A stretch of DNA of 46,726 bases from Actinomycetes bacterium (GTDB lineage: Bacteria > Actinomycetota > Thermoleophilia > UBA2241), in contig JBAXRL010000001.1 of the NCBI GenBank assembly GCA_037131205.1, positions 1 to 46,726 on the forward strand, in the 5' to 3' direction. The first letter of the stretch is position 1. Each line of letters begins with the position of its first letter. The translations under genes and the position numbers were made by a program. Shown in pieces: positions 3,457-5,565 of the stretch. The notes under the pieces were generated by a model that was not told where the DNA came from, did no database searches, and was given only the letters and a program-made list of their open reading frames with translations.

Positions 3457-3912
3457 TCAGAAGATGAGCCGAATCCTGGTTACTCCGCGGGCCGACAGCT
3501 TGTTGTTGAACGGCTGCGTGATCGGAGGGCCGCCGACCAAGCGGAACGGCGCTTCCTCGCCCTCCAGCAGCTTGCCGTCCTTGATCTTGGCGACGATCCA
3601 CCGCTTCTTGCCGATGATCCACTTGCTCGGCAGCTTGGGCTTGTAGCCGTCGCGGCAGAAGAACTGGATCCGGTACCCCTTCTTGGCCAGCGCAACGTTG
3701 AACGAGCTGGGATCCTTGTCGTCCACCAACCCGACCAGCTTGTACAGTGTCTGACCCTTGTAGACGTAGCGCAGCGTCGGGTTGATGTTGCCGGCCTTGT
3801 TGCCGTACCAGGCCACGGTCGCCGGAACCTTACCGATGGGCAGCACCTTCTTGCGCTTGCCCTGTAGCGTCAGCGTCCAGCCTCTCCTGCTCGCGGCACG
3901 GGTCTGGTCAAA
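3457..3912 (-). CDS. third SUOX-like repeat domain lying in the +1 frame relative to 3908..5032 (frameshifted or recoded continuation, or a pseudogene fragment)
   Basis: The frame is open from 3939 down to 3457. The domain begins GWTLTLQGKRKK upstream of the only in-frame start (GTG 3846). That start has no SD and no signal peptide. The +1 frame joins at the C5T4 run and the TTT TGA C site (3913..3907). Confidence 0.55.
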   Translation of the reverse strand, partial: FDQTRAASRRGWTLTLQGKRKKVLPIGKVPATVAWYGNKAGNINPTLRYVYKGQTLYKLVGLVDDKDPSSFNVALAKKGYRIQFFCRDGYKPKLPSKWIIGKKRWIVAKIKDGKLLEGEEAPFRLVGGPPITQPFNNKLSARGVTRIRLIF

Positions 3913-5032
3913 AGGGGGCCGCGCCCGCCGGCGACGACTTCACGATACCGATGCGCACGATCCCTCGAGTCTGAGTGTCTGGGGCGACGGCGGGGACGTT
4001 GCTGACCACCCTGAGCGGCCAATCCGGCACCCACTGCGGCACTCCGCTGCTGTCGACGAACGGCTTGGGCACGGGGAGCGGCTGGCCGTTGCCCAGGCTT
4101 GCGACGATCATCTGCTTGCCGAGCTGAGCGATGTCGGCACTCGCGAACGTCTCGTAAAAGCCGTCCATGCCGAGGATGGTGACGAAGTAGCCCTTCTTGG
4201 CCAGCTTCGCATTGAACGTGCTGCGGTTCTTGTCGTCGAAGTAGCCGACGATCGTCTTGAGGGAAACGCCCGAGTAGGTCACCGTGGACGTGGGGACGGT
4301 GCTGTCGGTGATCGTCACCGTCCTGTTCGCCTTGGCGGCCCAGGCGGCCCACTGCGACGACGTCATGTCGGCGCCGTACTTGGTCGTCACGGTGTTGCGC
4401 AGCTGCAGGTCCCAGCCGTAGGGCTCGGCGGCGGCGGCCGGCGCCACGGCCGGCACGATGCTGAGGCGCACGATTCCGCCGGGCTTCATCTTGCCGGTGA
4501 CGCTGGGGTCGAGGCTGACGATCTTGAGCGGCCAGCTTGGCTTCCAGATGGGCAGGCCGTTCTTGTCGAGCGAGGCCTTGGGAACGGTGAGCGCCTGACC
4601 GCCCGCGAGGTTCGCGACGATGACCTTGTCGCCGAGGCTCGCGACGTCGGCGCTGGCGAACGTCGCGGCGAACCCGTCCATGCCGAGAACGACGACCTTG
4701 TAGCCGCCCGCGGCCAGTTCATCGTTAAACGTGCTGGGGTCGTTGTCGTCGAAGTAGCCGACCAGGGTCTTGAGGGCGACGCCCTTGTAGATCACCGTGT
4801 CGGTGGGAACGCTGCTGTCCGTGATGGTCACCTGGCGGTCCGCCTTCGCGACCCAGGCGGCGAAGGCCTTGTAGGTCAAATCGGCGCCGTACTTGGTCGT
4901 CACGGTGTTGCGCAGCTGCAGGTTCCAGCCGTAGGGCTCGGCGGCGGCGCCTCGCATCGCCAAAGCCGGCGCCGCCAGCGCGAGCATGAGGACCGCCACT
5001 GCCGCAGCGGTCAAGGTCAGCTTCCTGATCAT
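3908..5032 (-). CDS. secreted protein with two tandem cysteine-less SUOX-like repeat domains (171-aa period)
   Basis: The track ORF 3908..5233 was trimmed to the ATG at 5032 (MIRKLTLTAAAVAVLMLALAAPALA, a signal peptide) with SD GGAGGAG 7 nt upstream. Each repeat runs PYGW(N/D)LQLRNTVTTKYGAD...Y.GV.LKT.VGYFDD...WPL(K/R)(I/V)VS. Confidence 0.8.
   Translation of the reverse strand: MIRKLTLTAAAVAVLMLALAAPALAMRGAAAEPYGWNLQLRNTVTTKYGADLTYKAFAAWVAKADRQVTITDSSVPTDTVIYKGVALKTLVGYFDDNDPSTFNDELAAGGYKVVVLGMDGFAATFASADVASLGDKVIVANLAGGQALTVPKASLDKNGLPIWKPSWPLKIVSLDPSVTGKMKPGGIVRLSIVPAVAPAAAAEPYGWDLQLRNTVTTKYGADMTSSQWAAWAAKANRTVTITDSTVPTSTVTYSGVSLKTIVGYFDDKNRSTFNAKLAKKGYFVTILGMDGFYETFASADIAQLGKQMIVASLGNGQPLPVPKPFVDSSGVPQWVPDWPLRVVSNVPAVAPDTQTRGIVRIGIVKSSPAGAAPF
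4368..4948 (-). repeat. intragenic tandem duplication with a 513-nt period
   Basis: The 68-nt segments 4368..4435 and 4881..4948 differ at a single base (tcggcgccgtacttggtcgtcacggtgttgcgcagctgcagg[t/c]cccagccgtagggctcggcggcggc). The offset is exactly 513 nt, i.e. 171 codons. Confidence 0.9.
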
Positions 5033-5164: not shown

Positions 5165-5315
5165 CGAAAAGGGGCCCATCCGCACGCGGAAAGGCCCGGC
5201 AAGGCGCGCTCTCCTTTCCGCACTGGGAGACACGGCGGTTTCCCGCTGTACCCTTCCGGCTTCGGCTCCGTAGGCTCCACACGCCCTTAGGAATCCGAGA
5301 CTCGGAGAAGCCGCC
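5165..5315 (-). promoter_or_regulatory. Moco (molybdenum/tungsten cofactor) riboswitch-like leader with a possible terminator/antiterminator platform
   Basis: Minus-strand RNA is CUUCUCCGAGUCUCGG..GUGGAGCCUACGGAGCC..ACAGCGGGAAACCGCCGUGUCUCCCAGUGCGGAAAGGAGAG. It contains the CUCCGAG, GGAGC, GAAA-capped stem, GUCUCCC and GAAAGGAG blocks I associate with the Moco RNA motif. The P1 candidate is UCUCC/GGAGA. Downstream, CGGAAAGG can alternatively pair with CCUUUCCG. A GC hairpin plus CUUUUC lies at 5165..5200. Confidence 0.65.
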
Positions 5316-5565
5316 GCAGTCTATACGCGCGCGCCCCGCGGCACAAGGTCGCCGCGTCCGACCTGAGGCCGCGCCGTCTGGACATGTTGGCCTGTGCCGT
5401 CGTGTTCCAGCATGGAGCGCATGCTCTTGAGCTGTGCATCGCAGCCTGGGCGAGGAGATGCAGACGCGCCCTCAGGGGTGCGCGCCGGCCGCGCGTCGCC
5501 ATCCAACACCCTGTGTGCCCCCGCCCCGGCATCTGATGTGGCGCATGGGTGGATCCTGGCGCCGC

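Follow-up and report, generated by a model that had tools for sequence, protein, structure and literature searches.

The stretch of DNA analysed here as a whole (the window) is 46,726 nucleotides long and corresponds to positions 1 to 46,726 of contig JBAXRL010000001.1 from an Actinomycetes bacterium (assembly GCA_037131205.1; Thermoleophilia, UBA2241). On its minus strand lies the gene of a secreted repeat protein, ORF1, whose zero frame ends at the element CCC UUU UGA (3908..3916, minus strand), and a further copy of the repeat domain, d3, is found in the +1 frame immediately behind the stop. Comparison with relatives suggests that one secreted protein is encoded in two frames, which are probably joined by a programmed +1 ribosomal shift at the element, a shifty stop. 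Sequence comparison gives good support to the element as a candidate site of conserved +1 recoding in a new gene family.

ORF1 stops at a UGA codon and a third repeat domain follows in the +1 frame

ORF1 (3908..5032, minus strand) extends from ATG 5032 to TGA 3910..3908 and is translated in the zero frame into 374 aa, comprising a Sec-type signal peptide (MIRKLTLTAAAVAVLMLALAAPALA, judged by eye), two repeat domains (d1 and d2), and the C-terminal end ...AAPF. The minus-strand context of the stop is GCG GCC CCC TTT TGA CCA GAC. The +1 frame is closed by a TGA at 3942..3940, is then open from 3939 to its stop at 3459..3457, and from 3909 reads DQTRAASRRGWTLTLQGKRKK...IRLIF. An earlier reading of this DNA, made from its letters only (hereafter the original prediction), had reported the stop in the context GCC CCC TTT TGA CCA and the open +1 frame from 3939 to 3457, and both were borne out. 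It had also claimed that this frame encodes a complete third copy of the repeat domain. The translation agrees: d3 (3457..3909, minus strand; 150 codons plus a stop) is a diverged copy of the repeat, sharing 36–39% of its residues with d1 and d2 (E about 1e-8). The higher lysine content of d3 (12.7% vs 5.8–7.6% in d1 and d2) and its lower GC content (0.624 vs 0.657–0.673), both remarked upon earlier, were likewise found.

The split arrangement is conserved among relatives

Homologues were searched with the read-through product as query, and scans for d3 in genome and metagenome collections yielded 26 and 43 further loci, respectively. Many homologues cover ORF1 alone (~375 aa, 60–99% identity), and others contain all three domains in frame (546–594 aa). 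Three contigs with close ORF1 homologues (86%, 70%, and 65% identity) each carry CCC TTT TGA C at the end of ORF1, and d3 follows there in the +1 frame. The results showed three architectures of d3. In the split architecture (32 distinct loci), CCC TTT is present in 32/32 loci and is followed by TGA in 31/32, and d3 is always in the +1 and never in the −1 frame. In the fused architecture (15 distinct loci), d3 is in frame with PF[DE]Q at the junction. In the stand-alone architecture, which is seen in more distant relatives (L033, L034, L063, L064, L066–L068, L070–L073, and L075–L079), d3 genes encode a signal peptide of their own, cleaved immediately ahead of GGWTLTLQG. In all non-split architectures d3 is extracytoplasmic, being either fused behind secreted domains or equipped with its own signal peptide.

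The original prediction had asked whether the 0/+1 arrangement is kept in orthologs or the domains are fused in frame. Both occur: the arrangement with CCC UUU UGA is conserved in the 32 distinct split loci, a recurrence well beyond what chance would give, and the fused relatives match the PF|D junction. An independent d3 gene with its own signal peptide, which had been named as an observation that would speak against recoding, does exist in distant relatives (L033, L034, L063, and others), but it contradicts recoding in form only, as these genes indicate that d3 needs export, which is unattainable for the d3 of the window alone.

Among the loci from the d3 scans, all titled records but one are Thermoleophilia, Actinomycetota, or Actinomycetes metagenome-assembled genomes (MAGs), and d3 is present in 37 of 401 sampled genomes of the class (that of the window included), all of one family. 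The split loci come from ~30 independent contigs, some of them long, in Joint Genome Institute (JGI) metagenomes and in MAGs of several other projects; they differ in flanking sequence, and their C-run varies from C3 to C5. A d3 tree of 69 rows showed split and fused loci interspersed among the long-linker relatives. The split state takes 11 changes on the best tree, at least five of which are forced by well-supported branches, and a well-supported clade around the window contains 31 d3 rows, 27 of them split. When L029 and L032 were compared, the extra base fell inside the C/T run.

Some individual loci deserve mention. L045 (533–955; JGI contig Ga0209262_10138731) reads CCC TTT TGT and is the sole split locus without TGA, its ORF1 frame continuing for ~100 codons; this may be genuine variation, with shifting in the absence of a stop, or a wrong base in a short contig. 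In L027 (~2288–2431; MAG CAVQXS010000013), a second frame break lies ~60 nt 5′ of CCC TTT TGA G, where CGCAAGCCG-CCGGCG is one base short relative to the relatives, probably an assembly error. In the fused homologues P0028, P0032, P0036, and P0038, d1 and d2 are near-identical over ~170 residues within each protein, yet differ between species, indicating concerted evolution or gene conversion in which d3 takes no part.

The third domain is intact and under purifying selection

The d3 ORFs are intact in 30/30 split loci examined. For 19 split relatives, the ratio of nonsynonymous to synonymous differences per site (pN/pS) was 0.31 in the d3 frame vs 1.4–1.55 in the two other frames; since a third-position GC content (GC3) above 90% compresses pS, contrasts between frames and regions were relied on and not the absolute ratio of nonsynonymous to synonymous rates (dN/dS). 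The last 165 codons of ORF1 (3911..4429, essentially d2) gave a pN/pS of 0.83 in split relatives, compared to 0.31 for d3 (3460..3909), and d3 is therefore the most constrained part of the protein. The identity to L010 is 89% for d3 and 65% for ORF1. The N-terminal repeats thus appear to be the variable part of the protein and the domain behind the frameshift its conserved core.

The members of the clade around the window have diverged to a pS of about 0.3–0.45; no broken d3 was found among them, and pN/pS was 0.26–0.31 on all-split paths. As d3 is intact and constrained in the split loci, a decaying pseudogene is excluded. The same pattern of selection implies that d3 is expressed in the split state.

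No conserved start codon precedes the third domain

The first possible start codon of the +1 frame is GTG 3844..3846 (minus strand; codon 22, the Val of KKVLP), and a second GTG is present at codon 32. The sequence preceding GTG 3846, GGGCAAGCGCAAG, is not a Shine–Dalgarno (SD) sequence, and no signal peptide follows the GTG, which is unlikely to be a real start. These results support the original prediction, which had noted that the first conserved strand of d3 lies upstream of this GTG and that the GTG lacks an SD sequence and a signal peptide. The GTG of codon 22 is absent from four loci (L009, L014, L041, and L074), and in L055 the first 60 codons of d3 contain no start codon at all. No ATG was found in the d3 frame between the upstream stop and codon 60 in the short-linker relatives of the window, neither GTG nor TTG is kept as a conserved +1-frame start in split relatives, and no SD sequence was found at the candidate d3 starts in any locus. 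The starts assigned to the downstream ORF by gene callers also vary (4190, 4235, and 4163 in locus coordinates).

Selection on the d3 frame begins before any of these codons. The first conserved strand, GWTLTLQG (3859..3882, minus strand), lies upstream of every start codon, and residues 3–7 have a predicted local distance difference test score (pLDDT) of 96–97 in the structure model. Codons 10–21 (GWTLTLQGKxKK), upstream of the first GTG, have a pN/pS of 0.34 in the d3 frame vs 2.25 and 0.90 off-frame. In split relatives, the d3 frame 5′ of the shift site is an Arg-rich off-frame sequence that is closed 10–80 codons back. In the window, the sole place for a frame change is the overlap stretch 3911..3939 (minus strand), which reads SRRRRARP, again Arg-rich, in the +1 frame and the conserved linker KSSPAGAAPF in the ORF1 frame. 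Taken together, the selected codons upstream of every start and the closed +1 frame imply that d3 is entered from ORF1 within 3939..3911, and CCC UUU UGA is the only conserved element in this stretch.

The CCC UUU UGA element is retained in split and fused genes

The heptamer CCCUUUU offers tRNA-Pro and tRNA-Phe two ways of pairing, CCC UUU and CCU UUU. The same 9 nt are present, read as C CCT TTT GA, in 12 of the 15 distinct fused loci, where the slippery heptamer C_CCT_TTT stands in the correct −1 phase. Outside the junction, TTT accounts for 2–7% of Phe codons and CCT for 5–7% of Pro codons in these genes; for the fused loci the counts are 4/202 and 37/509, respectively. Of the three fused loci that depart from the element, two have CCT TCT and one has CCG TTC, the commonest codons and the expected end of drift if the site were unconstrained. 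The base 5′ of CCT is C in 14/14 fused loci reading CCT, the base 5′ of CCC is free in split loci, and the bases flanking the element vary. The retention of rare codons in both forms shows that the 9-nt element is selected in the split as well as in the fused configuration. The invariant unit is thus CCCUUUU(GA), maintained by selection at the nucleotide level.

With respect to re-pairing in the ribosomal P site, for which NUU_U is needed, UUU_U is present in 32/32 distinct split loci and allows a perfect move from UUU to UUU. Among 36 split rows, the TGA position is followed by C (32 rows), G (3), or T (1), and C follows in 3 of 18 fused rows.

A +1 ribosomal shift would join the two frames

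In the mechanism that we favour, most ribosomes would end at UGA 3910..3908 and release the two-domain protein (signal peptide, d1, and d2) ending in ...AAPF. A fraction would shift by +1 with peptidyl-tRNA-Phe paired to UUU in the P site and UGA-C, a poor terminator, in the A site; tRNA-Phe would find a perfect match in the overlapping UUU within the U4 run, and a move of tRNA-Pro from CCC to CCU would likewise be possible. The shifted ribosome would read GAC (Asp) and then translate d3, giving a three-domain fusion product of 524 aa with the junction ...AAPF-DQTRAAS... (junction peptide SSPAGAAPFDQTR). Only in this product would a signal peptide stand ahead of d3. At this predicted junction the residues PF|DQ coincide with PF[DE]Q, which fused relatives encode in frame. 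We infer that the ribosome and not RNA polymerase is the shifter, that two products are made, and what their ratio is. The short form is probably favoured, because Actinobacteria terminate efficiently at UGA, and the fusion is probably a minor product, given that a prfB shift has been reported absent from Actinobacteriota, reaches only ~6.6% in Mycolicibacterium smegmatis, and is missing from the prfB of the source genome.

Several observations weigh against a +1 ribosomal shift. UUU_U shifts much less than CUU_U in Escherichia coli (PMC5009743), the prfB frameshift is absent from all 2658 Actinobacteriota surveyed, and in M. smegmatis the shift at the prfB motif is merely ~6.6% (bioRxiv 10.1101/2024.09.24.614795). 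The prfB gene of the source genome (contig C166 of G000; L080, 1465..2580, minus strand) is itself unshifted, being one uninterrupted 371-aa ORF without an internal UGA, which agrees with the reported lack of prfB frameshifting in the phylum. The association of C after UGA with the split state is not significant when relatedness is allowed for (four independent pairs), the constant stop position is trivial given a conserved Phe-Asp/Glu encoded as TTT GAN and is not independent evidence, and L045 carries TGT in place of TGA. Nor was a stimulator firmly established. Complementarity to the anti-SD sequence upstream of the site is enriched (mean −6.2 vs −3.75 kcal/mol), but the spacing is 4–20 nt with no conserved motif and not the 3 nt from the shift codon seen in prfB; this G-rich enrichment may be explained by the Gly/Ala-rich composition of the linker. 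A possible weak hairpin (3890..3902, minus strand) 7 nt 3′ of the U-run has the form CCCGY NCC GCGRG in relatives and a mismatch in the window. In short-linker relatives, 75% of cells are paired vs 27–56% when slid, with one compensatory change from C-G to U-A, and the observed pairing was reached by 34 of 500 shuffles. For long-linker relatives the consensus downstream hairpin has merely −2.1 kcal/mol and nothing consistent was seen. The prfB logic invoked in the original prediction therefore holds for the re-pairing on UUU_U and for the UGA-C site, and fails for the SD-like stimulator at a fixed 3-nt spacing.

Alternative explanations

The C3–5U4 run could also act on RNA polymerase, which would realign on it and leave some mRNAs one base short, and these would be translated into the three-domain protein. 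One base fewer is the type of change made by the stem-loop-dependent slippage at T5C5 in Roseiflexus IS630 (PMC5009743), a GC hairpin ends right at the U-run in several loci (among them the window, L007, L011, L017, and L036), and transcriptional slippage would explain selection on homopolymer runs equally well. However, upstream hairpins adjoining the run show no enrichment (32% of 44 sites vs 21% of 826 control CCC positions, Fisher p = 0.13), the blocks are short, with U4 and at many loci C3, and stand in the order opposite to T5C5, a forward shift gives an rC:dA mismatch that was not tolerated in the Roseiflexus work (PMC5009743), and a terminator scan of the region called no terminator-like site. 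On balance, transcriptional slippage is unlikely. A different proposal is that the split genes are in a true OFF state for d3, a contingency switch or tolerated loss brought about by homopolymer indels, and that d3 is kept by frequent reversion. The mixing of split and fused loci among long-linker relatives, with its 11 changes (at least five forced), and the indel inside the C/T run between L029 and L032 would fit such a switch, but the 31-row clade, 27 rows of which are split, contains no broken d3 and keeps a pN/pS of 0.26–0.31 on all-split paths, and the rare CCT TTT codons in fused forms would be left unexplained. The tract is also merely C3–5T4, and known phase-variable tracts are far longer than runs of 3–5 bases. 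We regard this proposal as quite improbable.

Two separate genes, with d3 made once ORF1 has terminated, either through reinitiation or at a non-canonical start, would be in keeping with the ORF of 119–138 aa that gene callers annotate 3′ of ORF1 and with the fact that stop–restart coupling is common in bacterial operons. The called starts differ by locus, though; ATG and SD sequences are lacking, neither GTG nor TTG is conserved, and L055 is startless over 60 codons. The candidate starts also come only after the selected first strand, and, in contrast to all other d3 forms, which are exported, the product would have no signal peptide. Such a gene is thus very unlikely. The remaining explanation is that the C5T4 run was missequenced or misassembled and that the gene is really one ORF. 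Homopolymers are error-prone, several of the long-linker split loci are in MAGs with very long contigs that, going by their sizes and names, are probably long-read assemblies, and L027 has its second frame break. Yet the identical split recurs in ~30 contigs from many independent metagenomes and MAGs, with varied flanks and with runs from C3 to C5, which makes the chance of an error negligible. Assembly error and frameshift mutation, the alternatives offered in the original prediction, are accordingly rejected, as the split is found in ~30 independent contigs and d3 is intact under purifying selection.

The fused genes raise a further question about the favoured +1 ribosomal shift, namely whether the element works in both directions. 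It is possible, though doubtful, that the 9-nt element CCCUUUUGA acts as a recoding switch in two directions, at which split genes would shift by +1 to add d3 and fused genes, reading C_CCU_UUU_GA, would shift by −1 into the UGA. Both gene forms would then yield both isoforms, and a one-base indel would merely invert their ratio. This would explain at least five flips between the forms without loss of d3 or of the rare codons.

The third domain resembles PruR and lies in a cofactor-sensing operon

The AlphaFold2 (AF2) model of d3 has a mean pLDDT of 88.3, with 96–97 for the first strands. A Foldseek search with this model found the PruR structures 7kom and 7kp2 at template modelling (TM) scores of 0.68–0.72, and the SoxCD Mo domain 2xts_A also matched; over 7kom, 7kp2, 7kos, and 7rkb, the TM scores were 0.64–0.72, E values 6e-6 to 5e-4, and identities 11–18%. 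Profile searches by sequence (Pfam, NCBIfam, and a PDB profile search) gave nothing significant for d3 and no match to PF00174 (Oxidored_molyb), and merely 2 of 63 d3 sequences reached an E of 0.08 with this family. By its model, d3 appears to be a PruR-like SUOX-fold domain. PruR proteins are periplasmic pterin-binding proteins, small extracytoplasmic single domains (PMC11194511). The d3 model superposes on PruR and on the SUOX-fold Mo domain, and d3 too is a small extracytoplasmic single domain. In contrast to PruR, to which identity is only 11–18%, d3 has no Pfam match, and the domains here are tandem repeats behind a molybdenum cofactor (Moco) riboswitch.

The operon is headed by a Moco/tungsten cofactor (Tuco) riboswitch aptamer (5195..5319, minus strand), which matches Rfam RF01055 at 53.7 bits (gathering score 36; E 3.5e-10). 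With this riboswitch located 5′ of ORF1, the frameshifted gene stands first in a cofactor-sensing operon. The next gene of the operon, P0002 (2281..3327, minus strand), encodes a secreted protein with an Oxidored_molyb domain (Pfam PF00174, E 1.8e-7), and the gene order is kept in L007, L009, and L010. The operon context points to a putative secreted function linked to pterin or to Mo/W.

The source genome comprises 4.45 Mb with 69.6% GC. The sequence CCCTTTTGA occurs in it a single time, both strands counted. Two other TTTTGA sites, G000:C3:18275 (+) and G000:C103:4151 (+), combine a zero-frame ORF of at least 100 codons with a following +1 ORF of at least 100 codons; these sites may be due to chance in a 70% GC genome.

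Comparison with known recoding systems

The closest counterpart is prfB with its CUU_UGA_C site. Both have a P-site NUU followed by U, a zero-frame UGA that is usually followed by C, GAC as the next codon read, and a +1 frame that encodes an essential part of the protein. UUU_U itself is found in a minority of prfB genes, in which C after UGA matters (PMC5009743). Unlike prfB, the protein here is an unrelated secreted SUOX-fold repeat protein with no obvious link to the autoregulation of release factor 2 (RF2), the shift would occur near the end of a long ORF and not at codon 26, the zero frame by itself yields a complete protein of two domains, an SD-like element at 3-nt spacing is lacking, and the host phylum, Actinomycetota, is one without the prfB shift.

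The tail and capsid genes of the Listeria phages PSA, A118, and A500 and the pheL gene of E. coli also shift by +1 at the last sense codon before a UGA (CCC_UGA), and in the phages the shift appends a C-terminal domain. In different relatives such phage extensions are made by +1, by −1, or in frame (PMC5009743), a variety that mirrors the split and fused relatives described here. These cases differ in being phage structural genes or a leader peptide, and in that CCC adjoins the stop there, whereas UUU lies between CCC and UGA here. In dnaX and copA, a −1 shift into an immediate stop gives a truncated isoform. The fused relatives are similar in carrying the X_XXY_YYZ heptamer C_CCU_UUU, with CCC UUU UGA in the −1 frame, and could hypothetically make the same two-domain protein ending in ...PF by a −1 shift. 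The system differs from dnaX and copA in that no stimulatory structure or SD element is established and that the shift proposed for the window itself is +1. Roseiflexus IS630 (T5C5) likewise has two adjacent short blocks of C and U, which there fill the RNA–DNA hybrid, and a message one base shorter would restore the frame, but here the blocks are reversed (C3–5, then T4) and shorter, and an adjacent hairpin is not enriched.

Significance

To our knowledge, very few conserved +1 frameshifts are present in bacterial chromosomal genes, prfB being the textbook case and the others being mostly in phages or mobile elements. The setting is an ordinary operon for secreted pterin-binding-like proteins, under a Mo/W-cofactor riboswitch and in a phylum reported to shift poorly at the prfB motif. 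If the favoured +1 ribosomal shift is true, the element would be one of the rare cases, other than RF2, in which a conserved +1 frameshift occurs in a gene of a bacterial chromosome, and the retention of the slippery heptamer in in-frame orthologues too adds a new twist. It would also mean that the most conserved domain of the protein is now annotated by gene callers as an orphan ORF of 119–138 aa. The gene family would let +1 shifting at UGA be followed in high-GC bacteria with a natural reporter, and would provide a system for testing how a gene moves between in-frame and recoded encoding of a domain.

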